Source: Bacilli bacterium
GTDB lineage: Bacteria > Bacillota_I > Bacilli_A > ML615J-28 > CAG-698
NCBI GenBank assembly: GCA_050174575.1
Contig: JBFXJT010000007.1
Span: 6,648 to 70,647 of the forward strand
Direction of reading: 5' to 3'
Length of the DNA: 64,000 bases
Each line of letters begins with the position of its first letter. The stretch's first letter is position 1. Position numbers and translations under genes: made by a program. Under the pieces are notes generated by a model. The model saw only the letters and a list, made by a program, of their open reading frames with translations, searched no databases and was not told where the DNA came from. Below, piece by piece: positions 3,409 through 44,334 of this stretch.

Positions 3409-3588
3409 ATTTCTTCTTCTTTCCTTTGATAATCTAATTATACATAAACTTTTAATTTAAATAAATGATTTCTTTTATGTAATGATGAATCTTGCTTTGT
3501 TTGACTATATTTCGTCTATAATTTGGTCTGTAATCGCTTTTGGATAATCATCTAATAAGAATAAGTAAAATTAAATAAGTTATCTTAA

Positions 3589-3620
3589 AAGAAAAAACGA
3601 ATCAACAGCATTGATTCGTT
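3589..3620 (-). terminator. Rho-independent terminator after the GH13 gene
   Basis: Minus-strand RNA AACGAAUCAA-ugcug-UUGAUUCGUU followed by UUUUUU, starting immediately after the stop codon at 3621. Confidence 0.75.
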
Positions 3621-7885: not shown

Positions 7886-7911
7886 ACTAAACTCCTTTGG
7901 AAAAAGTATCC

Positions 7912-21807: not shown

Positions 21808-22224
21808 TTACTTAGGGGGCATAATAGTCGCTTCACCGACTATCACCACTTCGTTTTTGTCGTTTTTTGCAACGCAATCAAAAACAACACGATTTTTTTC
21901 CATAATGATTTCTTTTACAGTCACAAAAGCCGTTATTGTATCATTCAAATAAACTGGCTTAATAAACTTTAAACTTTGGAAAGTATAGATACTTCCTAAA
22001 CCAGGTAATTCAGTACCTAAGATGGCACTAAAAAGAGAGCCAACAAGCATACCATGAACTATCCTCGTTTTAAAAATCGTTGTTTTTGCATAATCTTCAT
22101 TTACATGAGCGGGGTTAAAGTCACCAGAAACTGAGGCAAAATTGTTAACATCAGTTTCTGTAAAACTCTTTGTTATTGAACTTGTTTGTCCAATAAACAA
22201 TTCGTTAATTGTCAATTTTTTCAA
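21808..22224 (-). CDS. MaoC-like (R)-specific enoyl-CoA hydratase / hot-dog protein, first gene of the lysine operon
   Basis: The MaoC dehydratase domain begins at KKLTINELFIGQ. The probable start is TTG (complement of 22222-22224), 8 nt after RBS AAAGGAG. The longer ATG-extended ORF would run through the terminator hairpin and riboswitch. Confidence 0.6.
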   Translation of the reverse strand: MKKLTINELFIGQTSSITKSFTETDVNNFASVSGDFNPAHVNEDYAKTTIFKTRIVHGMLVGSLFSAILGTELPGLGSIYTFQSLKFIKPVYLNDTITAFVTVKEIIMEKNRVVFDCVAKNDKNEVVIVGEATIMPPK

Positions 22225-22241
22225 GAAATAACTCCTTTCAT

Positions 22242-22273
22242 AAAAAAAGCTGTTGTCTTTTAAAGACAACAGC
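22242..22273 (-). terminator. Riboswitch expression-platform terminator
   Basis: GCUGUUGUCUU-uua-AAGACAACAGC followed by UUUUUUU, immediately upstream of the RBS of the first operon gene. Confidence 0.8.
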
Positions 22274-22435
22274 GCTCCATTTCCCAAATGGCAGTGGATA
22301 AGGCATTCCTTGTCCACCAAGACTTTAATGAATGAACTCATTAAATCTTTCGGCGATATTTCCCTTTATTTGTCACATTGGGAGTTCATTCCCTTAGCAT
22401 TGACAAATTACCCTAAATAACGCACCTCTGTGTAT
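22262..22435 (-). promoter_or_regulatory. Lysine riboswitch (L-box) aptamer in the 5' leader of the lysine-fermentation operon
   Basis: Leader begins ACAGAGGUGCG (L-box AGAGGUGCG) and contains AAAGGGAAAUAUCGCCGAAAG (L-box GGGGAGCGUCGCCGAAG), the UUUGUCA...UGACAAA helix, CCAUUUGGGAAAUGG and the 3' GGAGCGCUGU (L-box GGAG(G/C)GCUAUC). About 170 nt, matching the length and order of the B. subtilis lysC element. Confidence 0.75.
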
Positions 22436-22446
22436 TAACTAATACT

Positions 22447-28757: not shown

Positions 28758-29284
28758 AAAAAATAATATTATTCCTCCTTTTTGTTAGTTTACTTGCTAT
28801 CGTTGGTTGTACAATTGGTGAAAACACAACTGTTAAAATGTCTTTAAAGTCTGGTATCGATACAGTTGAAATTAATAGCGAATATGTTGATCCAGGTGTC
28901 AAAGCAACTTTTGGTTTATTGAGCCTTGATGTCAAGGTCGTTTCTTCAACCGTCAACACCCAAATGCTCGGGGCTTATGAAATTGTTTATGAAGCTAGTT
29001 ATAACGGTATTTTTAAAACAATTACACGAATAGTGACTGTAATTGATGATACTGCCCCTATTATTTACTTAAATCCTGGTGTTGACACTATTTTAATCGG
29101 TGAAAATTGGGTTGACGCTGGTGTTACGATAACCGACAATAGCAATGTTGTGATTGACCCCATCATAACTGGAGAAATTAACAATCAAGTTGTTGGTGAT
29201 TATGAAATTGTTTATCAAGCAAAAGACTCAAGCAACAATATTAATCAAATTATCCGTATAGTTCATGTTATTGATAACGAATAA
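28754..29284 (+). CDS. Lipoprotein with two DUF5011 (Ig-like) domains
   Basis: Lipobox LLAIVGC. Two ~65-aa modules of the pattern VD.G..A.......G.YEIVY.A.D..G......R.V.VID. Start overlaps the protease stop (ATGA). Confidence 0.7.
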   Translation: MKKIILFLLFVSLLAIVGCTIGENTTVKMSLKSGIDTVEINSEYVDPGVKATFGLLSLDVKVVSSTVNTQMLGAYEIVYEASYNGIFKTITRIVTVIDDTAPIIYLNPGVDTILIGENWVDAGVTITDNSNVVIDPIITGEINNQVVGDYEIVYQAKDSSNNINQIIRIVHVIDNE

Positions 29285-29310
29285 AAAAAGGTCCGATTTT
29301 CGGACCTTCT
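29283..29310 (-). terminator. Terminator of the fructan operon (after the fructokinase gene)
   Basis: GGUCCGA-aaa-UCGGACC followed by UUUUUUU on the minus strand. The same hairpin follows the convergent plus-strand gene, but with a poor U-tract. Confidence 0.75.
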
Positions 29311-30254
29311 CACATTAAATTATTTATTTCATCTAAGGTAGGAAGGGCATCAATTGCCCCTTTTTTTGTTGTCACTAACGCGCCTGAAATATTACCAAAC
29401 CGTAAAATTTGTACAATTTGCTCATCAGTTAAATCATCAATATCTAATTTGTCTAAATTGACTAAAACACCAGCATAGAAAGCGTCTCCTGCACCCGTTG
29501 TATCAATTGGTTTTACAATAATTGATGGTACTTTGAGCAAGCGCCCATGGTGAAAAAAAACAGAGCCATCTTTTCCCAAAGTCAAAAAGACTATTTGGTT
29601 TTTTGTTGTGAGTTTCATCAATCCTTTTTCTAAATCTGTTTCACCAGTAAATAAAATTAATTCGTCTTGAGATATTTTTAAATAATCTGCCTTTTTTGCG
29701 TAATATGTATAAATGTTAATTGCTGTTTGCGCATCAACGAATAAATCATCGCGATAGTTAACATCAAAACTTAATGATTTATGGCTTTTTTTCACAAGTT
29801 TAATAATGTGATTTGCAAGTTCTCTTCCTTTTGGTTCGCTTAACAGTAATGAACCAAGATGAACAATATCAGCTTGTTTGATGGCTTCTAAGCTGGTTTT
29901 GGGGATATGAAAATCCGCTTGGTTTTTGTGATAAAAACTAAAGTGGCGTTCGCCATCATCGTCATTCGCAACAAATGCTAAAGTAGTATTGTGAAATGGA
30001 TCTTCCGTAATTAATGTTTTAGAAAAAGGAATTTTAGATGCAAAATCAATTAAAAATTGACCCATCAAATCAACTCCGACATTTCCAACGAACTGAACAT
30101 TTCCTCCATACTTAGCAATGCCACAAGCAACATTAAAAGGAGCTCCACCCGCAAATGTTTGATAAGACATCGTGTTATTAACTTTTTGACCTATTAAATC
30201 AACAAGGATTTCGCCAATACAGACTATCATTTGTTTCTCCTTAAGTTGTTTCAC
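29310..30254 (-). CDS. scrK: Fructokinase (PfkB/ribokinase family)
   Basis: 314 aa with the PfkB signature DTTGAGDAFYAG. Position at the end of the fructan locus, overlapping the lacI-family gene, supports the fructokinase call. Confidence 0.75.
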   Translation of the reverse strand: MKQLKEKQMIVCIGEILVDLIGQKVNNTMSYQTFAGGAPFNVACGIAKYGGNVQFVGNVGVDLMGQFLIDFASKIPFSKTLITEDPFHNTTLAFVANDDDGERHFSFYHKNQADFHIPKTSLEAIKQADIVHLGSLLLSEPKGRELANHIIKLVKKSHKSLSFDVNYRDDLFVDAQTAINIYTYYAKKADYLKISQDELILFTGETDLEKGLMKLTTKNQIVFLTLGKDGSVFFHHGRLLKVPSIIVKPIDTTGAGDAFYAGVLVNLDKLDIDDLTDEQIVQILRFGNISGALVTTKKGAIDALPTLDEINNLM

Positions 30255-31203
30255 CTAAAATTAAATTAGTTGGAACAAAAATGAATTCTTCCGATGTTTC
30301 ATGATTAATTCGTAATATCAGTTGATTAACAATGGCAACGGCAAGAGCTTCAATATCTTGTTTGACAACAGTAAATTTAGGATGTTGTAAAATCTCATCC
30401 ATGACTCCATCAAATGCAATGATTTTGATTTCTTCAGGAACTTTTTTTCCAAGTTGAGTAGCTATCTGAAAGCAAGTATTGGCAAAGGTATCACTTTGGG
30501 CAAAAATTCCGTCCAATGTTGGGTTCTCTTGCATAAATTGTTTTGCAACAACAAATTCTTCACCATGATATACATTCTTATAACAAGAAGTCGGAACCAT
30601 ATTATATTTTTGCATTACATCCAAATAAGCAAAGTAACGTTTTTGTGTTTCTGAAGGAGCAGTGGACATACCACCAATATAGCCAATGTGATGACACCCT
30701 TTTTGGACAAGATGCTCAATGGCTTTAAAAGTACTTTCATAATTATCACTTGTAACACAAGGAACGTTGTCGAGATGACGATCCAAAGTCACTATGTTTA
30801 GCCCTTTGAAATCAACATCCTGATATAAGTGATTGGTGATGAAAATAATCCCGTCGACTTGTCCTGTCTTAATCATATTCAATAAATGAACTTCTTTATC
30901 TCTTTTTCCTTGAGAACTGACAATAATCATTTTGAAACCTTTTTTATACAAGTAATCCTCAATGTAAAAAGCAATTTTACTAAAGAAAACGTGACTAATG
31001 GTTGGAACAAATAGGGCAACTAATCCAGATCTTTGTGCCTGTAGATTTCGCCCTAATTGATTAGGAATGTAATTGAGTGCTTTAATTGCATCTTCTATTT
31101 TTTTTCGCGATTCTTCAGATACATAACCGTTTTTATTAATGTATCGCGAAACAGTTCCCATGCCAACCCCAGCTCGTTTTGCAACTTCTTTCATTTGGGC
31201 CAA
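30241..31203 (-). CDS. LacI-family transcriptional regulator (probable repressor of the fructan operon)
   Basis: N-terminal HTH MAQMKEVAKRAGVGMGTVSRYIN and a C-terminal periplasmic-binding-protein-like sugar-binding domain. Confidence 0.85.
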   Translation of the reverse strand: MAQMKEVAKRAGVGMGTVSRYINKNGYVSEESRKKIEDAIKALNYIPNQLGRNLQAQRSGLVALFVPTISHVFFSKIAFYIEDYLYKKGFKMIIVSSQGKRDKEVHLLNMIKTGQVDGIIFITNHLYQDVDFKGLNIVTLDRHLDNVPCVTSDNYESTFKAIEHLVQKGCHHIGYIGGMSTAPSETQKRYFAYLDVMQKYNMVPTSCYKNVYHGEEFVVAKQFMQENPTLDGIFAQSDTFANTCFQIATQLGKKVPEEIKIIAFDGVMDEILQHPKFTVVKQDIEALAVAIVNQLILRINHETSEEFIFVPTNLILGETT

Positions 31204-31283
31204 GGTAGTCGCCTCCTAACATGTTTTCATAAACTATATTATATCACTACGTACTACTATTTTTTAACCGTTTTTCGAAATAT

Positions 31284-31344
31284 TGTAATGAAAGTAGTTC
31301 TTTCATGGATGATTAACATCATTTTGAAAGAACTACTTTATTAT
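31284..31344 (-). repeat. Long inverted repeat / RNA hairpin between the 914-aa gene and lacI
   Basis: Arms TAATGAAAGTAGTTCTTTCA (31284-31303) and TGAAAGAACTACTTTATTA (31326-31344) are about 19 of 20 complementary, with a ~20-nt loop. Each arm is itself a GAAAG...CTTTC mini-palindrome. Confidence 0.7.
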
Positions 31345-31353
31345 TAAACAACC

Positions 31354-34098
31354 TTATCCCATTTGATTAGTAATTGTTTGCCATGGAATATTGTGTGTTC
31401 GTTCGACAGTCCATTGATCGCTCGTATCTTTACTGTAAAGAGTTACGGTATCAAAGCCATTAGCAATATCTGGAGTAACTGCATAGTATGTTACAACTTC
31501 ATCAAAGAAGGCAACAGCCCAACCAGCTACTTCAATATCACAAAGTTCCAAATACAATTCCTGGCCTAAGTAAGCACTTAAATCAATAAAATATGTCCCC
31601 ATATCTGCCCATGATCCACCTAAATCTACACTTGGGAAATTGGTATCGCTAAAACGATTTTGTTTATATAAACCAATTTGTGTCCCGTCAGCTAAATAAA
31701 CTTTTACAGCTGCAGCATTAGCACCCATTTTTAAAGAAATAAAGCCTGTTCCGTGAAGAGTAAAATTGGTTGAGCGTAATGAATATTGCTCGCTTTCCGC
31801 AACACCTGAAGTCCATCCGTCAAAGTGATAATCACCGCTTTGGTTATATGGTAATTTTTCATTCCAATAATGTGTTTGACTTATAACAGCATTAACTGTA
31901 ACTTTTTCAGAAGTCCAACCAGTCATATCACCAGTTTCAAAACCTCCATTGATAATTAAACCATTATTGCCCATTTCCCATTCGATATTAACATCTGGTT
32001 CTTGGACACTGTCTTTTGTAGAACCAGCAACAGTATCAAAGCCATTTGCAACATCAGGAACAGTTGTATGATAGAAATTAATATCATCAAAGAAAGAAAC
32101 TGCCCAACCAGCTGTAGCTGGATCATCAATCAATTCAACATAAACTTTTTCGCCTAAATAAGCCGATAAGTCCGCAAAGTAACGTGTCATGGTCGCTAAA
32201 CGTCCACCATTAGCAAGGTATGGGAAATCAAAATCTTTGAAACGATAATTTGTGAAATAACCGATGACTGTTCCATCTTCTTTTACAACACGAACAGCGG
32301 CAGCTTTTCCACCCATCATGAAGGAAACCCAACCAGTACCAGATAATGTAAATAATCCAGAGCGTAAAGTATAACCAGCTGATTCCACGCTTGTTGCTGT
32401 CCAACCATCAAAATGGTAATTTCCTTGTTGGTTATAAGCAATCATTTCGCCCCAGAAAGTTTCTGCGCTTAAGGCACCATTAATTATATCGCCAAAAACA
32501 ACACTCCAACCAGTCATATCACCTGTTTCAAATCCACCGTTTGCGACATTGGTATCGGCAGAAACGACAACATTGAATGTGCTCGTAACTGTTTCGCTTT
32601 CATAAGTTGTCCCATAATGAACAACATATGTTCCTTCTTGATCAAAATCAAAAGCATCAAATCCTGTTGTAAACTCTGTTTCGCCTAAAACAACTTTTGT
32701 AATGACAGCTGGTACAGCCGTTTCGCCATAAGTTATCACGACATCAGCCATTAATGCTGTCAAGTTGTAATCATTTACCATCGCCGTTACAAAACCTTCT
32801 GCTTCAGTTTCAATCATTAAGGCAGGTAATTCAAATGGATAATCATAATTTGTATAGTATTCTTGTAAATGAGCTAGCGAATTATATGAATCGGTGTATG
32901 TTTCTGCCATAATTGCTTGGAAAGTAGATTTCATTAAAGCTTTTACTTCAACTTCCGTCATACTAACACGGAAATCATCAGCATTGATGAAAGCAAATCC
33001 GCTACTTGGATTGTTGTCCACAATCGAGATGTACAACACATCGCCAAGGTATTCGGATGCATCAACATAAACGCGACGTAATGTCAATGGTAATCCTGGA
33101 TCGTTAAATGTTGTATTAGTGACTTGGATTAATTCTGCATCTGTTGTTCCGTCATTAATAGAAATATAACAATTTGTTGGCCCAGAACCAATCATAAAGG
33201 AAATCCAACCATCACCGGCTAATGTGAATTTTGTAGAACGGATTGCTCCAACTGCTGATTCGGCAGTAGCTGCATTGTTATTTCCGTCTAAATAATAATC
33301 ACCTTCACCATAAACCATACGATCAGTCCAATAAAATTGTGATGTTGGAACGACAACTGTTCCACCAAATGCTGTACCGCTTAATTGTTTCCAACCAGTT
33401 AAATCACCTGTTTCAAACCCACCATTTGTAATCGTTGTTGATGTTGGGTCTTCTTCAAATTCTGGTTCTCCATAAGCTTCAATTTGGGCATCACGTTCTG
33501 CTTGCATAGCTGTAACTTCTGCTTCAGTCAAACAAACTACAAAATCATCTAAATTGACATAGCCATAATCATCGGTGTTATCACTGTCAGTTACTCTGAT
33601 ATAAATGATTTTATTCAAATGTGCTGATAAATCAACAACTCTTCTGATCATTTGATCAGTAATAAATGGTTCATCATAATCAGTATTCGTTATTTTTAAC
33701 AAAGCCGTGGCATTGTCTTTTTCAAAGAACTCAACAAAAATCTTATCTTGATTTTTTGCAGCTCCCATTTTAAAAGCAATTTTACCAGTTCCAGTTAATT
33801 TAAAGAAAGAAGATGTTAGTGTACCAACCATTTGTTGAGTACCACCATCCGTTCCACTGAACCAAAATTCTCCTGTTTTATCTACAGTAATTCCATTTAC
33901 TTTTAGATCATTAACGATACCGCGAGGACTAAAAGCCGTTTCTGTTTTTGTCCATCCCGTCCAAACTTCTGCTGTTCCAACTTCAAATCCACCGTTTGTA
34001 ATTTGGGTTGGATACTCTTCTTCTTTACCACATGCTGCTAACAATAATAAAGAGAGTGCTAGCATAAATACAAAGGTAAAACGCCATGTTTTTTTCAT
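31354..34098 (-). CDS. Surface lipoprotein made of four tandem CBM-like (ConA-like/CBM66-like) beta-sandwich modules; putative fructan-binding protein
   Basis: Lipobox LLLAAC. Four ~190-230-aa repeats each open with NGGFE.G...GW (ITNGGFEVGTAEVW, ITNGGFETGDLTGW, VANGGFETGDMTGW, IINGGFETGDMTGW) and end with ...Y..(V/I)(N/D)DF. The N-terminal module of the adjacent GH32 enzyme is homologous. Confidence 0.6.
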   Translation of the reverse strand: MKKTWRFTFVFMLALSLLLLAACGKEEEYPTQITNGGFEVGTAEVWTGWTKTETAFSPRGIVNDLKVNGITVDKTGEFWFSGTDGGTQQMVGTLTSSFFKLTGTGKIAFKMGAAKNQDKIFVEFFEKDNATALLKITNTDYDEPFITDQMIRRVVDLSAHLNKIIYIRVTDSDNTDDYGYVNLDDFVVCLTEAEVTAMQAERDAQIEAYGEPEFEEDPTSTTITNGGFETGDLTGWKQLSGTAFGGTVVVPTSQFYWTDRMVYGEGDYYLDGNNNAATAESAVGAIRSTKFTLAGDGWISFMIGSGPTNCYISINDGTTDAELIQVTNTTFNDPGLPLTLRRVYVDASEYLGDVLYISIVDNNPSSGFAFINADDFRVSMTEVEVKALMKSTFQAIMAETYTDSYNSLAHLQEYYTNYDYPFELPALMIETEAEGFVTAMVNDYNLTALMADVVITYGETAVPAVITKVVLGETEFTTGFDAFDFDQEGTYVVHYGTTYESETVTSTFNVVVSADTNVANGGFETGDMTGWSVVFGDIINGALSAETFWGEMIAYNQQGNYHFDGWTATSVESAGYTLRSGLFTLSGTGWVSFMMGGKAAAVRVVKEDGTVIGYFTNYRFKDFDFPYLANGGRLATMTRYFADLSAYLGEKVYVELIDDPATAGWAVSFFDDINFYHTTVPDVANGFDTVAGSTKDSVQEPDVNIEWEMGNNGLIINGGFETGDMTGWTSEKVTVNAVISQTHYWNEKLPYNQSGDYHFDGWTSGVAESEQYSLRSTNFTLHGTGFISLKMGANAAAVKVYLADGTQIGLYKQNRFSDTNFPSVDLGGSWADMGTYFIDLSAYLGQELYLELCDIEVAGWAVAFFDEVVTYYAVTPDIANGFDTVTLYSKDTSDQWTVERTHNIPWQTITNQMG

Positions 34099-34115: not shown

Positions 34116-36164
34116 CTATTTTACAATAATGTCATATTTGCTTATTTGCTTTAATATAGAACTTCCCCCAACAGTGAAAAATTCAATACCAGTGTCATTT
34201 AAGCCTGGGTAAACATTTCCAGTCATCGTAATATAACCATCATTAATAAAGACTTCAACACTGGAAACGTCTAAAAAGATTCGTAATTTTAAAATCCCAT
34301 TATTTAAGGAAACGTCAGCACTCCTAGTTTGACGGTTGATTTCCGCACCACTGATTGTTTCACCTGAATTTCCTCGATCAAAGATAACTGTTTGTGAAAG
34401 AGCATCATAATAAACTAATGTTTCGTTTTCTGTTCCTTTAAACAGTTTCACCCCAACTTTAGATGCAGATCCAACTTCAATTTCAAGTTCCAGTTCAACC
34501 GTCTTACCAGAAATTTGTGGGAGGACTAAGTTTCCATTAATCGTTTTATTTTGATAACTGACTTCATTTTGACGATAATTTTCGATTTCTCTAACTGGGG
34601 CTTGATAAATATGGCCATCTTTATAGGTCAATTCTCTTGGCAAGGTATAAGCACCAACCCAGTTATGCGCTTGTGTGACTAAAGTACGATCCCACATTTG
34701 CATCCATGCTAGCATAATTGTTCGTCCATCAGGCGTTATCATCGTTTGAGCAGCATAGAAATCAAATCCACCGTCAAATTCTTGAAATTCATCATAATTG
34801 AATTTCCCCGTTTGATAATCAATTCCACCAACCATATAAACTACCGAGTGAATATTTTCAAATTTCGTCTTGTCTCTTGGTAAATTTTGTGGACTAACAA
34901 TTAAAATCTCTTGATTATTTAACTCAATAAAATCTGGGCATTCATAAACACCATTTAACTGTAAGAAATTTGGTGCTTGAGGATTGTTATTGTTCATGAC
35001 TTTGCCAACATAATCCCAACTAGTTAAATTGCTCGAACGATAAAGGACAACCATGCCATAGCCATTTGCTTTCGTACCGATCAAACAATAATAATATCCA
35101 TCATGATAAAACACTTTTGGATCACGAAAATCAGCTGTTGATACACCGATTGGTACCTCAATTGTAGAAATAACTGGATTACGGGTTAATTTTTCAAAAT
35201 TAATCCCATCTTCGGACACTGCTAGATTTTGTGTTTGTTGATTATTGGCTACGCCAGTATACATGAGGTATAATTTCCCATCTTTTTCAATAGCCGTCCC
35301 ACTAAAGCACCCAAAATCTTGATCATATTTTTGATCGGGAGCTAAAGCTACAGGCTGTAATTCCCACTTAACAAAATCCTTCGTTGTTTGATGCCCCCAA
35401 TGCATTGGGCCCCAACTGCTGGCATAAGGGTTAAATTGGTGAAACAAATGACCTTCACCATTAAACCAAATTAATCCGTTGGGATCATTACTCCATCCTA
35501 TTGGAGATGCAGCATGATAAGTATGACGGTAAGTTGGGTTTACAGTATTAAGATTTTCAAGAACATATTGATATGCATCGTGTACTTTTCCCACTTGATC
35601 TTCAACTCCTTGATAATTAACGATAAAATCGTCAACATTGATGTAATTATAGTTATCGGTATTATTATCATTATCAATAATTTTTATTTGAACTGTTTTT
35701 CCAATATGACTACTTCCATCCAATATGACCCGATGGAGAGTATTTGGACTGCTTTCATCAAAATTTAAATTAGCGCGTGTTGCTAATTCATTCCCTCTTG
35801 AGTCAATTAAAGAAACATAACATAAGTCGACATTTGCTCCACCGCTAATCAAAAATCCGATTTTTCCATTCCCTTTTAATTGAAATTTTTCACTTAACAT
35901 AAAACCGGTTTTACTTAAGCCTGCTTTTTTACCATAAAAGAGAAATTCTCCCGTTTGGTTAAAGCGATTGCCATTTTCATCTTTGTCATTAAGAACAACA
36001 CCAGCATCAGTAAAAGCATCACCGTCTTCTTCCCAGTTTTTTAAGGTACCACTTTCAAAACTAGCGTTTAAAAAGGAATATTCGCCATCCACAGTTTGAT
36101 TACATCCTCCTAATATCATGATGAAAGAAAGAAGGATAGCAATCAAAAGCCATTTATTCTTCAT
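34116..36164 (-). CDS. GH32 beta-fructofuranosidase/levanase lipoprotein with N-terminal CBM-like module (canonical active site)
   Basis: Lipobox ILGGC. GH32 motifs WSNDPNGL (nucleophile), FSGTAI, RDPKVF and YECPDF are all present. Confidence 0.85.
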   Translation of the reverse strand: MKNKWLLIAILLSFIMILGGCNQTVDGEYSFLNASFESGTLKNWEEDGDAFTDAGVVLNDKDENGNRFNQTGEFLFYGKKAGLSKTGFMLSEKFQLKGNGKIGFLISGGANVDLCYVSLIDSRGNELATRANLNFDESSPNTLHRVILDGSSHIGKTVQIKIIDNDNNTDNYNYINVDDFIVNYQGVEDQVGKVHDAYQYVLENLNTVNPTYRHTYHAASPIGWSNDPNGLIWFNGEGHLFHQFNPYASSWGPMHWGHQTTKDFVKWELQPVALAPDQKYDQDFGCFSGTAIEKDGKLYLMYTGVANNQQTQNLAVSEDGINFEKLTRNPVISTIEVPIGVSTADFRDPKVFYHDGYYYCLIGTKANGYGMVVLYRSSNLTSWDYVGKVMNNNNPQAPNFLQLNGVYECPDFIELNNQEILIVSPQNLPRDKTKFENIHSVVYMVGGIDYQTGKFNYDEFQEFDGGFDFYAAQTMITPDGRTIMLAWMQMWDRTLVTQAHNWVGAYTLPRELTYKDGHIYQAPVREIENYRQNEVSYQNKTINGNLVLPQISGKTVELELEIEVGSASKVGVKLFKGTENETLVYYDALSQTVIFDRGNSGETISGAEINRQTRSADVSLNNGILKLRIFLDVSSVEVFINDGYITMTGNVYPGLNDTGIEFFTVGGSSILKQISKYDIIVK

Positions 36165-38544
36165 CCAGTGTTACCTCTTCATAAATTGATTTCATTGTTT
36201 TGACAGTCATTTGGTTTATGTTGACTTCACCATTTTCTGAAAACAAGAGTAACCCTAAAGATGAAGGATCGGGATAAATACGGGCAGAAATAGCTTTTTC
36301 ATTGTTGAAAAAAGCTTCAATTAAAGAACGGTCGAGGTAAATATCCATGACTAAAATATTATTATCTAAAACAAATGAGCCATAGAAATTTCCTGAAATG
36401 TTTTGGTTATCGCTTAATGCACCACTTAAACCTGTTTTTACTCCTAAGGTTTTTAATGTCTCATTAAAATAAAGCGTTGTTTCTTCTAACGTAGTGGCGT
36501 TCTTGCGAACTTTTATTCCAAACAAAGTAGCATTAATGTTTTCAAATTCTACGTGAATATAAAGCATGTCACCCTTTACATCAGTTAATAGGGTGTTGGC
36601 TTCACTGATGGACTTATTGCTCATTGTGACTAATGTCTCTTGGTAATAGTCTTCTAGTGCGGATACTGGGCGAATCATTAAATCCGTTCCGTCACTGTTT
36701 AAATAAACTTCTCTAGCCAGTCCAACACAGTTTGCCCACCCAGATAAATAGACATCCGATGGTTTCCTTTGATCCTGCATGATACTGAAAAGATAAGTTT
36801 TTTGGGAAACTGGATCAATAAAACCTGAAGGGCCAGTAAAAACATTATTACCATAATCAAGTAGTCTTGGAGTCGTCCCAAAAGCAGGATCGGGAATAAA
36901 ACGACCAGCAGTTTTATCGAAAGTACCAAGCCAATAATAAATATCATTATCGGCACTGTCAGCAGGAGCAGGACTAATAATCAACATATATTTTGTAATT
37001 GTTTTACTTTCGTTTGTTACGGGAAGCATAATCGGAAGTTCCCAAACAGGCCCTAAATCGGCAGGTTGATTGACTTGTTCGTACAATTGCCCTTTGTAGG
37101 TCCAATTATTAAACGAGTCATCCTTTGTTGTATAAAGTAAAGCTGTCCCACCAGTATTGATTTTGGTACTTGATGATCCAATTAGTAAAAACCAAGTATC
37201 TTCTTCTTGCCAAACATGGGCATCACGAAATTGTCCCGATGCTCCTTGACCAGCTACTTGTTTAATAGCTAATTCATCATCGATTACCCATTCTGTTAAG
37301 TAGGGATCGGTTGGATCTTTGGGCCTAGCAATACCAATGTTTTGATTGCTTATCAAACCATCTTTTTGATAAGAGTCATTTCCAGCAGTAAATAGTAAGA
37401 CGGGAATGCCTTCATTATCATAAGTTACACCACCGCTCCATACACCATCCGGACAAACGGAATCAGCTGTTGGGGTGATAACTTCTTTTAATGGACGCCA
37501 ATTAACCATATCATCACTGATTAAATGCCCCCATCCAATATTGCGAAAATAAGGGCCAAACATATTGAATTGGAAAAATAAGTGATAATACCCATTGTAA
37601 TACATTGGAGCATGAGGTTCATTCATCCAGTGTTGATAAGGACCACCATGATATTGTGTTTTATAAAAATCATCTGTCAGAATATTTTGTAACCAAATAT
37701 CCTCAAAAGCAATTTCCGGAACTGTCTTACTTTCGTAAACTTGCTTTACATCATTTGCTTGTAAACTGGCTTCATAGACTTTTAACTCATCAATCAATCC
37801 ACTTACCATATTTAAAGTTGCCGTAGCATTCGAACCTGGATAACTATTACGAGCAATGAGGAAGGGTTCGCCCGACGCTCCCATAATGGTTGCCCCTTCG
37901 AAAAAATAATCAATGTTGACTAATTCGCCATTTAAATATATGGCCATTTCGCCTTGATCACCATCGAAGGTTGCCACAATATGATTCCATTCATATTTTT
38001 TAAGGGGATTACCTTCATCCCATAAAGTTAACCATCGGTCACCAAGACCTACTTGAAAGCTCCAAGAACCATGGCGTTGATAGCCAAGAATAAATCCTTG
38101 GTTTTCACTTTTATTGTGTTGAGAAACAATCGCTGTTAATTTATCAGTTCCATTGTCTTTGGCATTGGGATCGTCCCACTCAAAGGCCCTTGGAGCAATC
38201 CAAACACTAATTGATAATTTTGAACCGCGAATTTTTAAATCTTCTTCTTGATAACGGATAAAATTAGAATATCCATCAAACAATAAGGAGCCATTATTGA
38301 TCCCTGTTGCGCGCCACTGTGGATCCTCAGGATTTTCCATAAAGCTAGGGTTTGTGAAAACATAAGCAACAGTCGCTGGAGCTTCGTTTTTCGAAGCATC
38401 ATTCACTTTGTTGCCCTGACCTTCATCAAAAGTTAAATGTAACAATAAATCTTTTGTATAAGGGTCGCTCTTTCCACATGCATATAAACTTGAAACAATG
38501 AATAATAGGAAAAAAATAGTCAATAGTTTTTTTGTTATCATCAT
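36154..38544 (-). CDS. GH32-like lipoprotein with N-terminal LamG-like domain; variant active-site motifs
   Basis: Lipobox LYAC; N-terminal ConA/LamG-like domain. The GH32 block reads WMNEPHAPMYYNGYYHLFFQFN...WGHLISDDMVNW, but the canonical NDPNG is NEPHA, RDP is RDA (FRDAHVW), and EC is EL (WELPIM). Confidence 0.75.
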   Translation of the reverse strand: MMITKKLLTIFFLLFIVSSLYACGKSDPYTKDLLLHLTFDEGQGNKVNDASKNEAPATVAYVFTNPSFMENPEDPQWRATGINNGSLLFDGYSNFIRYQEEDLKIRGSKLSISVWIAPRAFEWDDPNAKDNGTDKLTAIVSQHNKSENQGFILGYQRHGSWSFQVGLGDRWLTLWDEGNPLKKYEWNHIVATFDGDQGEMAIYLNGELVNIDYFFEGATIMGASGEPFLIARNSYPGSNATATLNMVSGLIDELKVYEASLQANDVKQVYESKTVPEIAFEDIWLQNILTDDFYKTQYHGGPYQHWMNEPHAPMYYNGYYHLFFQFNMFGPYFRNIGWGHLISDDMVNWRPLKEVITPTADSVCPDGVWSGGVTYDNEGIPVLLFTAGNDSYQKDGLISNQNIGIARPKDPTDPYLTEWVIDDELAIKQVAGQGASGQFRDAHVWQEEDTWFLLIGSSSTKINTGGTALLYTTKDDSFNNWTYKGQLYEQVNQPADLGPVWELPIMLPVTNESKTITKYMLIISPAPADSADNDIYYWLGTFDKTAGRFIPDPAFGTTPRLLDYGNNVFTGPSGFIDPVSQKTYLFSIMQDQRKPSDVYLSGWANCVGLAREVYLNSDGTDLMIRPVSALEDYYQETLVTMSNKSISEANTLLTDVKGDMLYIHVEFENINATLFGIKVRKNATTLEETTLYFNETLKTLGVKTGLSGALSDNQNISGNFYGSFVLDNNILVMDIYLDRSLIEAFFNNEKAISARIYPDPSSLGLLLFSENGEVNINQMTVKTMKSIYEEVTLDEE

Positions 38545-38555
38545 CTTTTTCCCTC

Positions 38556-40904
38556 CTAGATTGTTTTCATTTTAATTACTTGCAAAACATCAACCATAAT
38601 TTGACCATCAGCAAATAACGACATTTCCGATGCATTGTTATAAACCATCGCCGTCAATGTTTGATACCCATTGATGTATATTTCAATCATTGCTCCATCA
38701 ATAAATATTTCTAAATCTAATACTTCCCCAGGAAGAAGAGAAATTCCTCCCCCAAAGATTCCTTTCACAACACTATTTCCAGAATTAGTTGTATCAATTG
38801 AAATAAATTGATCGATTGCGTTATAATTTAGGACTGTCTTTCTCCCTAGTTGATCTTCTTTTAAAGTAAGTCCAAAATTTTGAGAATTTTCATTAGTTAA
38901 TTGAACATGCAAGTATAACTGATTGCCGACCACTGATGCTAAAGCTTGGTTTGCAAATTCAATATTAGTATCTTTTTTATCAACAATGACATCAGTTTTT
39001 AAATTATTTAATTCGTTTAAAGGGGTAATTTTTAAACTGCCGGCATCATCAAGTGACAATTGACGAGGAATACCAGCAGTATGGGCCCATCCTGCATCAT
39101 AATCTTGATGACCATTTCGTTGGCCTTGAATAATGCTACAAATTAAAACACGTCCTGTTAGGGGATCCGTCGAAACCGTTGGCCCCGTAAACACATTGTT
39201 CCCAAAATCCATTAATTTTGGATCTTCATGTTCAGGAATAAAAGTCATCGTTGTTTTATCGAAGTCCCCCAAATAATAGTAAATATCATTATCCGCACCA
39301 GAACCCGCGGGAGAAAACGCAAATATATACTTAGAAACTGTTTTATTAGCGTTCGTTATTTTCGCAAGATTTACTAATTCCCATGTCGTACCCATATAAT
39401 TATGATAAACAGAAGGCATGAACAGTTCGCCTTGATAATCCCAATTCAAAAAAGAATCGTCTTGAGTTGTAAATACTTGGGCAGTTCCTTTATTATCATA
39501 ACGAGCAGATCCGACAAACATGTAGTAAGTTCCATCTTCAAAATAAATATTTGGATCACGAAATTCGTTTGTTTTGGCCATTGATGGTGTTGAGACGGCT
39601 ACTAATTGATCGCTTACATCCCACTCCGTTAAATCAGGATCGCTTAAATCTTTCGGTATTGCAATGGCGATATTTTGATTGCTCCATTGCCCAAAGCTTT
39701 TGGCATCATCACCGGCTGTAAAAAATAATACGGGTGTTCCATCAGCTTTGTATGACGCTCCTCCCGACCAAATACCATCAGGACAAACAGAATTTTTCAT
39801 AAGAATAATGGCTTCTTTCACATTGCGCCAATTGACCATATCAGGACTTACCCAATGACCCCATGCAATTTGCCGCCAGTATGGCCCAGTAAGATTAAAT
39901 TGATAAAACAAATGGTAATTTCCATTGAAATAAAACAAAGCATGTGGTTCATTCATCCAATGTTGAGGTGGTGAAGCATGATATTGAGGTTTGTATATAT
40001 CATCATCTAGCAATTCGTCATTAAGCCAAGCATCTTTAAAATCAATGGCTTTCATGCGGTTTTTTTGTACAAAACTGTTGTGATAGGCTATTATATCCTC
40101 TTCTTTAATTGATGCTTGGTAAATTTTAAGTTCGTCCATTAAACCATTGAACATATTAATTTCATAAAGGCCTGTTTTTTGGGGAACCTGGCTTTTTCCG
40201 ATATACAAAGATGTATTCGCAGCAATAATCTCGCCAAATACATCATTGTGAAAATTAATTATTTCCCCGTTTTTGTATATCCCCATAAATCCGTTTGTTC
40301 CATCAAAAACAAAGGTAAGATGATTCCAAGTATAACGGTCAAGATCATTCCACTCATTCCAAAGTTTAACCCAGCGATCGCCAAGTCCTATTTGAAAGGA
40401 ATATTCACCATATTTATGCATGCCGATAACAAAACCTTGATTTTCTGACATGATGTATTGCCCTAAAACAACTTGCAAATGCTCCGTTCCGTTAACAACT
40501 GCTCCTGGAACATCCCATTCAAACATCCTTGGGCTAATGAATAAATCAATAGTTAAGTTAGGACCGCTAATTTGAATATCCTGATAATCATATTTTATAT
40601 AATTCGAATAACCATCAAAGGCTAAACATGCACCACTAATTGCTGAATTTGTAATCCAAGTTGGATCAATCGATTGCTTGTATTCAGCATCCGTGAAGAC
40701 ATATTCAATCGTGGCTTTTGTCATTGTTGTTTGTTCAGTAAGTTCGTTACCTTCATTTTCATCAAAAGAAGTTGCAAATATTAATTTATCTTGATAAGGG
40801 TCATGATAATCGTGATAATAAATTGCATCCTCCTCTGTTTTTGCACAACCAATAAAGGCCATCATTAAACAAAAAACTGTGATAATTAATAAACCTTTTT
40901 TCAA
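38556..40904 (-). CDS. GH32-like lipoprotein with N-terminal LamG-like domain; paralog with NEPHA motif
   Basis: Lipobox FIGC. WMNEPHALFYFNGNYHLFYQFN...WGHWVSPDMVNW; RDP retained (EFRDPNIYF); EC replaced by EL (WELVNL). Confidence 0.75.
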   Translation of the reverse strand: MKKGLLIITVFCLMMAFIGCAKTEEDAIYYHDYHDPYQDKLIFATSFDENEGNELTEQTTMTKATIEYVFTDAEYKQSIDPTWITNSAISGACLAFDGYSNYIKYDYQDIQISGPNLTIDLFISPRMFEWDVPGAVVNGTEHLQVVLGQYIMSENQGFVIGMHKYGEYSFQIGLGDRWVKLWNEWNDLDRYTWNHLTFVFDGTNGFMGIYKNGEIINFHNDVFGEIIAANTSLYIGKSQVPQKTGLYEINMFNGLMDELKIYQASIKEEDIIAYHNSFVQKNRMKAIDFKDAWLNDELLDDDIYKPQYHASPPQHWMNEPHALFYFNGNYHLFYQFNLTGPYWRQIAWGHWVSPDMVNWRNVKEAIILMKNSVCPDGIWSGGASYKADGTPVLFFTAGDDAKSFGQWSNQNIAIAIPKDLSDPDLTEWDVSDQLVAVSTPSMAKTNEFRDPNIYFEDGTYYMFVGSARYDNKGTAQVFTTQDDSFLNWDYQGELFMPSVYHNYMGTTWELVNLAKITNANKTVSKYIFAFSPAGSGADNDIYYYLGDFDKTTMTFIPEHEDPKLMDFGNNVFTGPTVSTDPLTGRVLICSIIQGQRNGHQDYDAGWAHTAGIPRQLSLDDAGSLKITPLNELNNLKTDVIVDKKDTNIEFANQALASVVGNQLYLHVQLTNENSQNFGLTLKEDQLGRKTVLNYNAIDQFISIDTTNSGNSVVKGIFGGGISLLPGEVLDLEIFIDGAMIEIYINGYQTLTAMVYNNASEMSLFADGQIMVDVLQVIKMKTI

Positions 40905-40916
40905 ATTACCACTTCC

Positions 40917-41843
40917 TTACTTCAATCCAGTAAAAGCGACACCTTCAATAATATATCTTTGAGCAAAAATATAAACTAAGGCGATCGGAATCGTACTAAA
41001 TGTTAAGGATGCCATAACTAAAGAAATATCTTTCGGATTAAAATTATTAATCAACTGTAAAAATACTTGCAAAGGTTGTTGCACTGGATTAGAGAACATT
41101 AATTGTGCAAACACATATTCGTTCCAACTTCCCATAAATGTAAAAATAGCGACTGTTGCAAATACTGGCAATGATAGAGGAACAATAACCTTAAAGAAGG
41201 TTGTTAATTTACTAGCACCATCAACATAAGCTGCTTCTTCTAATTCTTTAGGAATTCCCAAGAAAAAAGCCCGAAACATGAAGATATAAAAGGGACTAAC
41301 AATACCTGGTAATAAATAACCAATGACTCTCAATTCTGCTGTCAATAATCCCAAATTTTTTAAAATAACATACAAAGGAACAATAGAAGTCTCAACAGGA
41401 ACAATTAATATTAAAATAATGATACTAACGATGGTTTTATGACCAGGAAAAACAAAACGAGACAACGCATAACCGGCAAGTGAGTTAACTAATAAAACAC
41501 CTGTAATCGAAATTGTTGCATAAATGACACTGTTAAGAATGGATCTTCCAAAATTATCAAAAGTTGCAAATAAATTTTGATAAGATAAAAACCATTTGCT
41601 GATATTCCAAGTAGCTGGTAAAAAGGTTTTTATGGAATTGATGGAGGCATACACTTCTGCTTGAGTTTTAAAACTATTCGAAAGCATCCATACTACAGGA
41701 AATAAAAAGATAATGCATAGCACGATTAAAAAAATTCTAAATAATGTTTTCGCAATTATTTCACGAACTGAGTAATGTCTTTTTTGTTTTTTAGGCAATT
41801 GTAGTATTGATAATGGAATGTTTTTTCGCTTCTTTTTCATCAT
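40917..41843 (-). CDS. Carbohydrate ABC transporter permease (MalG-like)
   Basis: EAA loop EAAYVDGASKLTTFFKVIVPLSLP and six TM segments. Start placed at the internal MMKKKRK, since the long-ORF start overlaps the upstream permease by 23 nt. Confidence 0.8.
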   Translation of the reverse strand: MMKKKRKNIPLSILQLPKKQKRHYSVREIIAKTLFRIFLIVLCIIFLFPVVWMLSNSFKTQAEVYASINSIKTFLPATWNISKWFLSYQNLFATFDNFGRSILNSVIYATISITGVLLVNSLAGYALSRFVFPGHKTIVSIIILILIVPVETSIVPLYVILKNLGLLTAELRVIGYLLPGIVSPFYIFMFRAFFLGIPKELEEAAYVDGASKLTTFFKVIVPLSLPVFATVAIFTFMGSWNEYVFAQLMFSNPVQQPLQVFLQLINNFNPKDISLVMASLTFSTIPIALVYIFAQRYIIEGVAFTGLK

Positions 41844-41850
41844 TATCACC

Positions 41851-42783
41851 TCAAATTGTGTTATCTTTCTCAAAGACTTTTCTTAAGGTTAAAGCAATCG
41901 TAGCCATAAAGATGGTATAAATTAAAGCGATGGCACTTGAATAACCAACATCCCGGAAATTAATACCTTGCAAATAAATATAATAAGACATCGTTAAGGT
42001 CCGGTCAATCGGACCTCCTCTTGTCATAATCATTGGTTGGGTAATCAACCTAAATGCCCCAATCATCATTGTAATCAGCACAAATGAGAATGTAGGCTTG
42101 ATGCTAGGAAGGGTAATCCGCCAGAATTGTTGGAATTTATTCGCTCCATCGATGCTTGATGCTTCATACAGCTCTTTTGGAATATTTTTTAGTGCTGACA
42201 AGAAAATTAACATTTGGTAACCTGCTCCCTGCCAAGCAGAAATCATGACAATTAAATCCATGGCTTGTTCGGGATCGCTTAAGAAAAGTTGTCTCGATAA
42301 ACCAATAGTTTCAAGGAGGGCATTTATCAATCCATCTTGCTCATTCAATAAGTTAATCCATAACATCGATGTGACCGCCAATGACAACATTGTTGGCACA
42401 AAGAATGCCCATCTAAAAAAGGTATTTCCCTTCATTGGCTTATTTAAAATCAAGGCTAACAAAAGAGCTGCACCAAGTTGTAACGGAATAACTTTTAAAA
42501 CAAATTCCATTGTGTTTTTAAATGCTTGAAGAAGAATTTTATCTTGAAAGGCATTTTTAAAGTTTGCAAAACCAATAAAAGTTGTATTATTTAACTCTAA
42601 TAAATTGGCATCTGTAAACGAATAGGCTAGAGAAATAACAATGGGCATAATGACAAATATAATTCCTAAAATAACAGCAGGAAGCAAAAAACTCCAACCT
42701 ATAATCGTATCAGAAGTTCGGTATGTTTTCCCAAATAATTTAAAATACATTCGGGTATTTGGTTTTTTTACAGATCCTACCAT
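41851..42783 (-). CDS. Carbohydrate ABC transporter permease (MalF-like)
   Basis: EAA loop EASSIDGANKFQQFWRITLP and six TM segments. Confidence 0.8.
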   Translation of the reverse strand: MVGSVKKPNTRMYFKLFGKTYRTSDTIIGWSFLLPAVILGIIFVIMPIVISLAYSFTDANLLELNNTTFIGFANFKNAFQDKILLQAFKNTMEFVLKVIPLQLGAALLLALILNKPMKGNTFFRWAFFVPTMLSLAVTSMLWINLLNEQDGLINALLETIGLSRQLFLSDPEQAMDLIVMISAWQGAGYQMLIFLSALKNIPKELYEASSIDGANKFQQFWRITLPSIKPTFSFVLITMMIGAFRLITQPMIMTRGGPIDRTLTMSYYIYLQGINFRDVGYSSAIALIYTIFMATIALTLRKVFEKDNTI

Positions 42784-42793
42784 TTTTCACCTC

Positions 42794-44134
42794 TTAATTG
42801 TCAATTTGAACGACTTGAGTGTCAATGTAATCTTCTAAATTGTATTCTGTTGTTCCATTCATTGTTTCGATGTATTCAATAATTTTACTGTAGCTACTAC
42901 TTACTTTAGGATAGTTGATCATTTTTGGTCGGGGAGTAGCAATTTCTTGTAAAATAGTTGCTAATGAACCTAAAGCTCCCGTTTGGAATCCTGTTAAATC
43001 ATTCAAAAGTGATTTATGGGTTGGAAATGTTCCAATTGATTCATACATTAATTGGCTTCCAGTAACTCCTGTTATATAAGCAACAGCAATCGCTGCTGAA
43101 GCAGGATCGGATGAATTAACCGTTACTCCAAATCCCCATGAACCACAACCAGCAACCGGCGTTCCTTTTGTAGTTTCGTCTTCATAAACAGGCATCGGCA
43201 TAATTCCATAACTTGGAATAAAAGTATTATAATTTTTCTTAATCGTCGAAATATTCCATGGTCCGTGAATTTCAAAAGCGCATTCTCCACCTGCTAAAGC
43301 ATCTGTATTGCTGCCATTGTAAACCCAAGGTTCGCCATCATCATCGGGGTTGAAGAACATTTCTAACATTTTAATTCCTTTAATAGAATTAGAAGAGTTA
43401 AGGGCACCATCAACGACTTCATTGGCGCCAAAGAAACTCCCACCTGAAGAATATATTAATGATGAATATAAATACATGACACCTTCATCGCCACCAAATC
43501 CTAAGTTCAATTTAATTCGATATTCAAGGTTGGCAGCTTTTAGGGCAACCATTGCTTCCATAACATCAAGCCAAGACCAAGGATTAGTAACTGTCCCAAA
43601 ATCTTCTTCATCATAACCAACTTGCTTTAATAAATCCTTATTAAAATACATTCCAGTTGGCGCATCCATACCGGATAAAGCATATAATTTTCCATCAATC
43701 GTACTTTGTTCGATGACGCTGTCAACATAACTCGAAGTAATATCAGTTGTTAAATATTGATCAATCGGTGCTAAAATGCCCGCATCAGCATAAGCAGCTA
43801 TATTAGGGGCATCAACAGCAACAATGTCAGGAAGTCCTCCTGATAGAATTTCCGCGTTGATTGCTGTTTGTAAAGTATCAGAACTGTTTTTAAATTCTAA
43901 TTTCATTTTTAAAATTCTTGTTCCATCAGCAGTTTTTAATTGTTGTTCATTAAACAATTCAGCAATTGTGGAATAAACAATCCCTTCATCTTCTGCTTCG
44001 GATTTATGAACCCAAACCTTAATTACTTTTACCTCGTCCGTATCTTCATCTTCTGCTGGACCACAACCAACAAACACCAAGAAACTAAGCAAAAGTACCA
44101 TAACACTTAAAAAAAGTTTTCCAAAATTTTTCAT
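42794..44134 (-). CDS. Extracellular solute-binding lipoprotein (family 1, CUT1 sugar ABC)
   Basis: Lipobox FVGCGP; 446 aa SBP_bac_1-like. It is the first gene of the fructan operon. Confidence 0.8.
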   Translation of the reverse strand: MKNFGKLFLSVMVLLLSFLVFVGCGPAEDEDTDEVKVIKVWVHKSEAEDEGIVYSTIAELFNEQQLKTADGTRILKMKLEFKNSSDTLQTAINAEILSGGLPDIVAVDAPNIAAYADAGILAPIDQYLTTDITSSYVDSVIEQSTIDGKLYALSGMDAPTGMYFNKDLLKQVGYDEEDFGTVTNPWSWLDVMEAMVALKAANLEYRIKLNLGFGGDEGVMYLYSSLIYSSGGSFFGANEVVDGALNSSNSIKGIKMLEMFFNPDDDGEPWVYNGSNTDALAGGECAFEIHGPWNISTIKKNYNTFIPSYGIMPMPVYEDETTKGTPVAGCGSWGFGVTVNSSDPASAAIAVAYITGVTGSQLMYESIGTFPTHKSLLNDLTGFQTGALGSLATILQEIATPRPKMINYPKVSSSYSKIIEYIETMNGTTEYNLEDYIDTQVVQIDN

Positions 44135-44305: not shown

Positions 44306-44334
44306 ATTTTAAACCACCCCGTTTTTTTTGTCAA
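44306..44334 (-). promoter_or_regulatory. Sigma70 promoter of the fructan operon
   Basis: Minus strand TTGACA (44329-44334), a 17-nt spacer, then TAAAAT (44306-44311). Confidence 0.6.

Follow-up and report, generated by a model that had tools for sequence, protein, structure and literature searches.

The stretch of DNA analysed here (the window) comprises 64,000 nucleotides (nt) of a Bacilli bacterium (GenBank assembly GCA_050174575.1, contig JBFXJT010000007.1, positions 6,648 to 70,647 of the forward strand). On its minus strand, an open reading frame (ORF) with an ATG start (31354..34098) encodes a protein of 914 amino acids (aa), the subject of this work, which is probably a lipid-anchored, non-catalytic surface protein for the capture of fructan. 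Seven co-directional and tightly spaced genes, of which this is the last, code, in operon order, for a lipoprotein-type substrate-binding protein (SBP), two permeases, two LamG-GH32 proteins (782 and 796 aa, respectively), a CBM38-GH32 protein (682 aa) and the 914-aa protein with its four predicted CBM38 modules. Lipoprotein-type signals were found in all five exported products of this operon, and the AGGAG ribosome-binding site of the 914-aa gene lies 17 nt past the end of the upstream GH32 coding sequence. A model-made annotation of the bare sequence (hereafter the first-pass annotation) had placed the gene in a fructan locus, and the surroundings bear this out: three GH32 genes, an ATP-binding cassette (ABC) importer, a LacI-family regulator and a fructokinase lie around it.

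The protein begins with MKKTWRFTFVFMLALSLLLLAAC followed by GKEE. This N-terminus consists of a hydrophobic helix (residues 4-21 in the AlphaFold2 (AF2) model) and then the lipobox L-A-A-C with Cys23, so that the lipoprotein signal peptide covers aa 1-23 (34030..34098); a disordered stretch comes after it in the model. Module M1 (aa 31-190, 33529..34008), predicted as a beta-sandwich, is connected by a linker (aa 191-220, 33439..33528) containing a helix (aa 192-209 in the AF2 model) to module M2 (aa 221-381, 32956..33438). An insert, hereafter X (aa 382-516, 32551..32955), separates M2 from modules M3 (aa 517-712, 31963..32550) and M4 (aa 713-914, 31357..31962), all these features being on the minus strand. 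Each module carries the NGGFE motif, at aa 35, 225, 520 and 717. Insert X (aa ~382-516) was modelled as two helices and an immunoglobulin (Ig)-like beta-sandwich of about 85 aa; it is without similarity to the modules and recurs in homologues in the order M-M-X-M.

When the modules were compared with each other by blastp, M3 and M4 were 50% identical (E 1e-63), M2 and M3 35% (E 6e-27), M1 and M2 30% (E 6e-22), and M1 and M4 27% (E 2e-9). Furthermore, the GH32 encoded next to this gene (ORF 34116..36164) has an N-terminal module (aa 29-200) which matched M1 with 35% identity (E 1.5e-24) and M2 with an E-value of 2.8e-19. On account of these pairwise E-values, both the homology of the four modules and their kinship to the GH32 N-module are far above chance. 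It had been proposed that this lipoprotein consists solely of four repeats, akin to the module with which the adjacent GH32 begins. The anchor signal, the four NGGFE modules and the kinship hold, the lipobox being kept in at least 37 of 41 aligned homologues with a nearly invariant cysteine; the word 'solely' does not, given the non-repeat insert and the M1-M2 helix.

For the identification of the modules, a profile hidden Markov model (HMM) was built from the five modules of the window (M1-M4 and the GH32 N-module). Against 1.84 billion representative proteins, it detected 1620 proteins at E<1e-3, of which 689 also passed E<1e-10. One of the GH32-fused proteins, P0140, served as the query of a homology search that returned two named characterised enzymes, both of which are cycloinulo-oligosaccharide fructanotransferases (CFTases): those of B. 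(Niallia) circulans (BAA24360.1 / O52973, 1503 aa) and P. polymyxa (AAL82574.1 / Q8RLU3, 1333 aa). On AAL82574.1, the HMM of the window modules matched residues 76-247, 261-397 and 1169-1331 (domain E-values of 3e-45, 9e-15 and 3e-30, respectively), and on BAA24360.1 it matched four repeats; the terminal repeats of both CFTases are the exact sites of these matches. By blastp, M1 was 31% identical to CFTase residues 77-237 (E 1e-17), M2 39% to residues 78-237 (E 3e-25), M3 46% over 172 aa to residues 77-245 of the P. polymyxa enzyme (E 3e-41), and M4 37% (E 6e-34). Of the window modules, M3 comes nearest to the part of CFTase for which inulin binding was defined by experiment. The GH32 N-module shares 37% identity with the C-terminal CFTase repeat, and M1 is of the same subtype as these two.

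CBM38, formerly X39 or inulin-binding module, corresponds to residues 32-389 of the 1333-aa CFTase of P. macerans, which comprise two beta-sandwich domains with a low micromolar affinity for inulin and levan (PMC10076258). This range spans both N-terminal CFTase repeats; the tie to the experimentally tested module (AAG47946.1) was made via the P. polymyxa and B. circulans CFTases and the range quoted in that paper. In addition, a protein of Defluviitalea raffinosedens was annotated by dbCAN as CBM38-CBM38-CBM38-GH32-CBM38 (PMC7355431), and P0140 contains four modules, as delimited by the window HMM, at coordinates near-identical to that layout. Because of the HMM and blastp matches to the CFTases, the published residue range and the common layout of P0140 and the Defluviitalea protein, the repeats of the window were assigned to CBM38. 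They have the length and fold of this family (a beta-sandwich of ~130-170 aa), they resemble its founding CFTase repeats, and they are associated with GH32 both in cis (in the 682-aa enzyme and in 23 of the best 150 module-bearing representatives) and in trans (in 32 syntenic loci).

The first-pass annotation had taken the repeats for carbohydrate-binding modules and had named CBM66 and CBM38 as families to examine. CBM38 is the one that stood, with domain E-values down to 3e-45 on the CFTase repeats, whereas no SacC CBM66 entry came up when the PDB was searched by sequence and by profile with the protein and its modules. The concanavalin-like Pfam matches of the locus are LamG_3 only and lie in the two other GH32s, not in the 914-aa protein, for which Pfam and NCBIfam gave nothing over threshold. 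Two sub-threshold matches at the NGGFE motif, CBM_4_9 (E 0.009) and NTTRR-F1 (52 bits, cut-off 70), were not used as evidence. A scan of genome contigs with a two-sequence alignment retrieved only Paenibacillus CFTase-like loci, and neither D. raffinosedens nor P. macerans was among them.

The AF2 model of the whole protein, calculated from 41 homologues, had a mean predicted local distance difference test score (pLDDT) of 90.1 and a predicted template modelling score (pTM) of 0.71. Structural matches pointed to a beta-jelly roll of the CBM type for the module fold; they include MAM domains, reelin repeats, CBM22, CBM11, CBM29 and CBM70, and no catalytic jelly-roll family was among the matches listed. 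With the full-length model, Foldseek found mainly multi-repeat jelly-roll proteins (reelin, Cry protoxins, Vip3, MAM) at template modelling (TM) scores below 0.2, which inform on the fold class only. In sequence searches of the PDB, neither the protein nor two module profiles had a significant match, hence there was no template.

A protein identical to that of the window is deposited as AB7V00_02605, a 'hypothetical protein' of a Bacilli metagenome-assembled genome (MAG). At E-values up to 1e-3, 444 clusters matched the 914-aa protein, most of them of about 720 aa and about 50% identical over 78% of the query. The hosts are MAGs of Lachnospiraceae, Clostridia, Acholeplasmatales and Bacillota; the members inspected are labelled 'hypothetical', with no functional name and no origin from a named isolate. 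The core architecture of this family is M-M-X-M (~720 aa), to which the window protein adds M4 (occupancy of 0.39 in the family alignment), and some relatives carry up to three further modules, at times together with extra X domains.

Conservation is unevenly distributed along the family. M2 is its most conserved region, with 71 of 160 columns at least 90% conserved across Lachnospiraceae and Bacilli, far above M1, M3 and the Ig-like insert, the latter being the least conserved part. The glutamate of NGGFE and a C-terminal aspartate are invariant. Several invariant Asp/Glu residues in M2, together with the ~50% identity between distant Firmicutes, might be expected of a cryptic enzyme, in which one or more modules, built on a jelly-roll scaffold, would modify fructan as a lyase, transferase or hydrolase. 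However, no catalytic family was matched by the protein in Pfam, NCBIfam or the PDB, in line with the earlier claim that it has no catalytic domain, and the invariant NGGFE glutamate and C-terminal aspartate occur in all CBM38 modules, which makes such an activity very improbable. These two residues would presumably fit the structural metal site of this CBM superfamily.

A second class of proteins with CBM38-like modules was also observed, with the layout [N-terminus of 200-1600 aa]-M-[domain of ~275 aa]-M-M-M. Its members (P0162, P0169, P0189, P0190, P0127 (3900 aa), P0147 and P0155) have no GH32 and almost no Pfam matches (Big_2 / FIVAR only), and the ~275-aa insert is recurrent.

In order to describe the genomic context of the family, 41 related loci were examined, six obtained by exact look-up and 35 from a metagenome scan. 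A GH32 was present in the same cluster in all 32 loci with usable flanks; in the remaining 9 of the 41, where no GH32 was matched, the sequence ends at or just beyond the gene. In most of the 32 informative loci, a LamG-GH32 gene directly adjoins the CBM38 gene. LacI, PfkB and ABC-permease genes were found wherever the flanks extend to them, and clusters of the Lachnospiraceae type have a cytoplasmic GH32 as well.

This synteny is relevant to the view that the protein binds a glycan other than fructan (of plant cell-wall, microbial or host origin), or is a general adhesin, its position in the locus reflecting co-regulation only. The beta-jelly-roll CBMs of this superfamily do have many different glycan ligands, and the GH32-free class just mentioned shows that CBM38-like multi-module proteins occur apart from this enzyme. 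Yet a co-occurrence with GH32 in 32 of 32 loci, the repeated fusions to GH32 and the resemblance of M2-M4 to the part of CFTase that binds inulin (37-46% identity) all speak for fructan, and a different ligand seems to us quite improbable.

Where the module and a (LamG-)GH32 are found in one chain, the layout is typically M-M-(M)-LamG-GH32-M. In addition, the M-X-M unit is fused N-terminally to LamG-GH32 in P0203, P0159, P0161, P0173 and P0200, the first of which is 37% identical to aa 206-708 of the window protein over 535 aa (E 1e-91). These proteins are Rosetta-stone fusions of the M-X-M unit with its partner. One locus, L007 (GCA_900175155.1, FWWL01000059.1), contains the gene of the CFTase-like protein P0140 among two more LamG-GH32 genes, a major facilitator superfamily (MFS) transporter, a LacI gene and an ABC system, and represents a multi-GH32 fructan island in an isolate-type assembly.

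The M-X-M-LamG-GH32 fusions could also be explained if the 914-aa protein were an obligate partner or scaffold which binds the LamG-GH32, within a 'split' endo-inulinase/CFTase or a surface complex, and whose main role is to organise or activate the enzyme instead of capturing glycan independently. The short distance between the two genes in the ~720-aa family (typically ~100-200 nt, same strand) and the unusual conservation of M2 and of the helical segment after it would be in keeping with such a role, and the pTM of 0.71 may suggest a fairly rigid multi-domain body. Nevertheless, we consider it unlikely: Pfam and NCBIfam searches found no cohesin/dockerin or other known interaction module, lipid co-anchoring alone gives proximity without need of a complex, and the gene order depends on the lineage, the CBM38 gene being placed after three GH32 genes in the window and in the loci of the L005 type. 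Moreover, the CBM38 modules of CFTase bind inulin on their own (PMC10076258).

A more elaborate proposal may be formulated along the same line, in which the CBM38 lipoprotein and the adjacent LamG-GH32 would form a physical complex on the monoderm surface, as a Gram-positive 'fructan utilisome' or a split endo-inulinase/CFTase. M2 and its flanking helices would then be the docking interface, and modules of the M1 type and of the M3/M4 type would read different parts of the polymer, for instance chain ends and internal beta-2,1 helices. Such a complex is conceivable because the adjacency is conserved, the M-X-M-LamG-GH32 fusions are exact and the conservation of M2 exceeds what a simple CBM would lead one to expect, but we hold it to be doubtful.

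Taken together, these data indicate that the 914-aa product is probably a lipid-anchored non-catalytic surface protein, in which four CBM38 modules ensure a multivalent capture of fructan for the neighbouring GH32s. This interpretation draws directly on the CBM38 homology, the CBM fold, the lipid-anchor signal, the membership in the operon, the synteny in 32 loci and the GH32 fusions, from which we infer fructan binding, a linkage preference, surface exposure and a cooperation with the enzymes. It agrees with the multivalent fructan-capture protein put forward in the first-pass annotation.

According to this scheme, soluble beta-2,1 (inulin-type) fructan, and possibly levan, would be bound multivalently at the outer face of the membrane, with up to four sites and a gain in avidity. 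The polymer would be concentrated beside the three co-anchored GH32 lipoproteins of the same operon, that is to say two LamG-GH32s of the endo-inulinase / CFTase-core type and one exo-type enzyme with its own CBM38. The resulting oligosaccharides or fructose would be taken up via the ABC importer of the operon, and fructose would be phosphorylated by the adjacent fructokinase under LacI control.

Some observations weigh against this interpretation, in whole or in part. M1 is only ~30% identical to the CFTase modules, and no solved CBM38 structure was found in the PDB copy searched with a profile of 11 CBM38 modules. The strong conservation of M2, unusual for a CBM, could mean an additional constraint such as a protein-protein contact. 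Finally, a preference for inulin over levan is suggested only by the CBM38 precedent and by the endo-inulinase-like motif WMNEPH of the partner enzymes, which are described hereafter.

The gene directly upstream in the operon (34116..36164, minus strand, like all the operon genes) codes for the 682-aa CBM38-GH32 lipoprotein, whose N-module (aa 29-200) lies at nt 35565-36080. Pfam recognised the GH32 N- and C-terminal domains and TIGR01322 was matched with 428 bits, above the cut-off; by these matches, the catalytic domain is an exo-type beta-fructofuranosidase. The 796-aa LamG_3-GH32 lipoprotein (36154..38544) resembles endo-inulinases and CFTase cores, its 782-aa alignment with the core of the B. 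circulans CFTase showing 39% identity, and the second LamG_3-GH32 lipoprotein, of 782 aa (38556..40904), was characterised by its Pfam matches and CFTase-core similarity. Over ~770 aa, the two enzymes share 35-39% identity with the LamG and catalytic core of CFTases. In both of them (36154-40904), WMNEPH replaces the usual WMNDPNG. This motif is also present in P0253, named endo-inulinase by NCBI, and in partner enzymes of the related loci, and it is missing from the true CFTases examined.

The ABC sugar importer (40917..44134) consists of two permeases (40917-41873 and 41851-42783) and the lipoprotein SBP (42794-44134); it was identified from the translations and NCBIfam, and recurs in homologous loci. 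While the operon (34116-44134) contains three exported GH32s and no cytoplasmic GH32 of ~500 aa, the latter is always present beside the ABC importer in the loci of the Lachnospiraceae type (L001-L004, L045, L052 and L054 were compared). This difference suggests that hydrolysis outside the cell goes further here, or that the genome encodes an intracellular GH32 at another place.

The best promoter-like site upstream of the seven genes, TTGACA-17-TAAAAT (44306..44334, minus strand), is a consensus match only and lies downstream of a tRNA-Ser gene and its terminator. Directly 3' of the stop codon of the 914-aa gene, a hairpin was detected (31291..31339, minus strand; -23.7 kcal/mol, z -6.3, none of 200 shuffles as stable). 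It is formed by a perfect, AT-rich inverted repeat of 15 bp with an internal mini-hairpin, ahead of the promoter-like site of the LacI gene, and the terminator scan missed it, as its GC content is low and a clean T-run is lacking. It is likely to mark the end of the operon transcript, and could be either a terminator or an element which stabilises or processes the mRNA. Beyond it, the genes of the LacI-family regulator (30241-31203) and the fructokinase (29310-30254) form a unit (29310..31203, minus strand) with its own promoter-like site (31238-31267) and terminator (29285-29311).

Several other features of the window were recorded. A lysine riboswitch (22262-22438, minus strand; Rfam RF00168, 81 bits, E 1e-19) coincides with the initial ~80 nt of the mechanically called ORF 21808..22341, a gene which probably starts further downstream. 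A glucan-metabolism cluster (1126-9375, minus strand) contains a GH9 with CelD_N (1126-3408), a GH13 alpha-amylase (3621-5477), a glycogen/maltodextrin phosphorylase (5474-7885) and a GH77 4-alpha-glucanotransferase (7912-9375). A BspA-type leucine-rich-repeat lipoprotein (11753-13435) and a PAS-GGDEF-hemerythrin protein (22517-24157) are encoded on the minus strand. On the plus strand (26073-29284), a small Ig-like lipoprotein comes after a subtilase that carries four Flg_new (Listeria-Bacteroides) repeats.

In the searchable literature, CBM38 is encountered only as a module attached to or inserted in GH32, or as a count in CAZyme tables, and it is absent from a 2026 review of gut CBMs. A CBM38 surface protein that stands by itself was not found described in that literature, although CAZy itself may list such proteins. 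Likewise, a literature search for a described Gram-positive fructan-binding surface protein yielded none, the matches being mostly old antibody papers. The stand-alone, lipid-anchored CBM38-only architecture, as a fixed part of Gram-positive fructan loci, therefore appears to be undescribed. The claim of novelty made earlier must be narrowed to this architecture, since the module family was known before, as were Gram-positive surface proteins which combine several CBMs without catalysis, in their case for starch.

Few prebiotics are as widely used as the inulin-type fructans; the Firmicutes which capture the polymer, and the way in which they do so, are poorly defined. By cell sorting, inulin binding was found to be common among Lachnospiraceae, the binding protein not being named (PMC10721620). 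The family described here is a concrete candidate for this activity in uncultured gut Firmicutes. It would serve as a genomic marker of fructan use at the level of the polymer, and not only of fructo-oligosaccharides (FOS), in uncultured Gram-positives, and would offer isolated CBM38 modules for a first structure and for specificity studies. It may also illustrate a separation of binding from catalysis on the surface of monoderms, like that of the surface glycan-binding proteins (SGBPs) of Bacteroidota.

The first-pass annotation had seen in the protein a functional analogue of the SusE/SusF type. SusE and SusF (starch), as well as BT1761, the SGBP of the levan utilisome of B. thetaiotaomicron (PMC7782687; bioRxiv 10.1101/2022.08.15.503959), are likewise lipid-anchored, non-catalytic proteins with tandem beta-sandwich domains, belong to loci with an endo-acting surface enzyme and share the presumed role in polymer capture. 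The analogy, which would be one of function, stops there: no SusE or SusF_SusE Pfam domain was detected in the 914-aa protein at E-values up to 1, and neither the window locus, which has an ABC importer instead, nor the related loci contain SusC/SusD. The Bacteroidota proteins are anchored in the outer membrane and work with SusC/D, whereas the window protein is predicted to be anchored in the cytoplasmic membrane of a monoderm and to be built of CBM38 modules.

Closer in cell type is Sas6 of Ruminococcus bromii (CBM26 and CBM74), a non-catalytic starch-binding protein (bioRxiv 10.1101/2022.11.20.514607). It resembles the window protein in being Gram-positive, extracellular and non-catalytic, in containing only CBMs and spacer domains and in aiding separate polysaccharide-degrading enzymes, and it differs in its starch substrate and CBM families. 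Sas6 is attached to the amylosome via a dockerin and is not known to have a lipid anchor. As regards fructans, the CBM66 modules of Bacillus subtilis SacC and Anaerostipes butyraticus AbFEH are fructan-directed, attached to GH32, and boost activity on the polymer (PMC12678895); they belong to another family, with no sequence match to the modules of the window.

The closest relatives are the CBM38 modules of the CFTases of P. macerans, P. polymyxa and B. circulans, which are alike in sequence family (31-46% identity, domain E-values from 1e-12 to 1e-45), in their predicted beta-jelly roll, in their tandem copies and in their association with LamG-GH32 cores. In the CFTases, however, the modules are covalently part of the enzyme (M-M-(M)-LamG-GH32-M), whereas in the window four of them, with an Ig-like spacer, constitute a separate, enzyme-free lipoprotein. 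The 914-aa protein would thus provide in trans the CBM38 targeting which the Paenibacillus CFTases and many other GH32s possess in cis.

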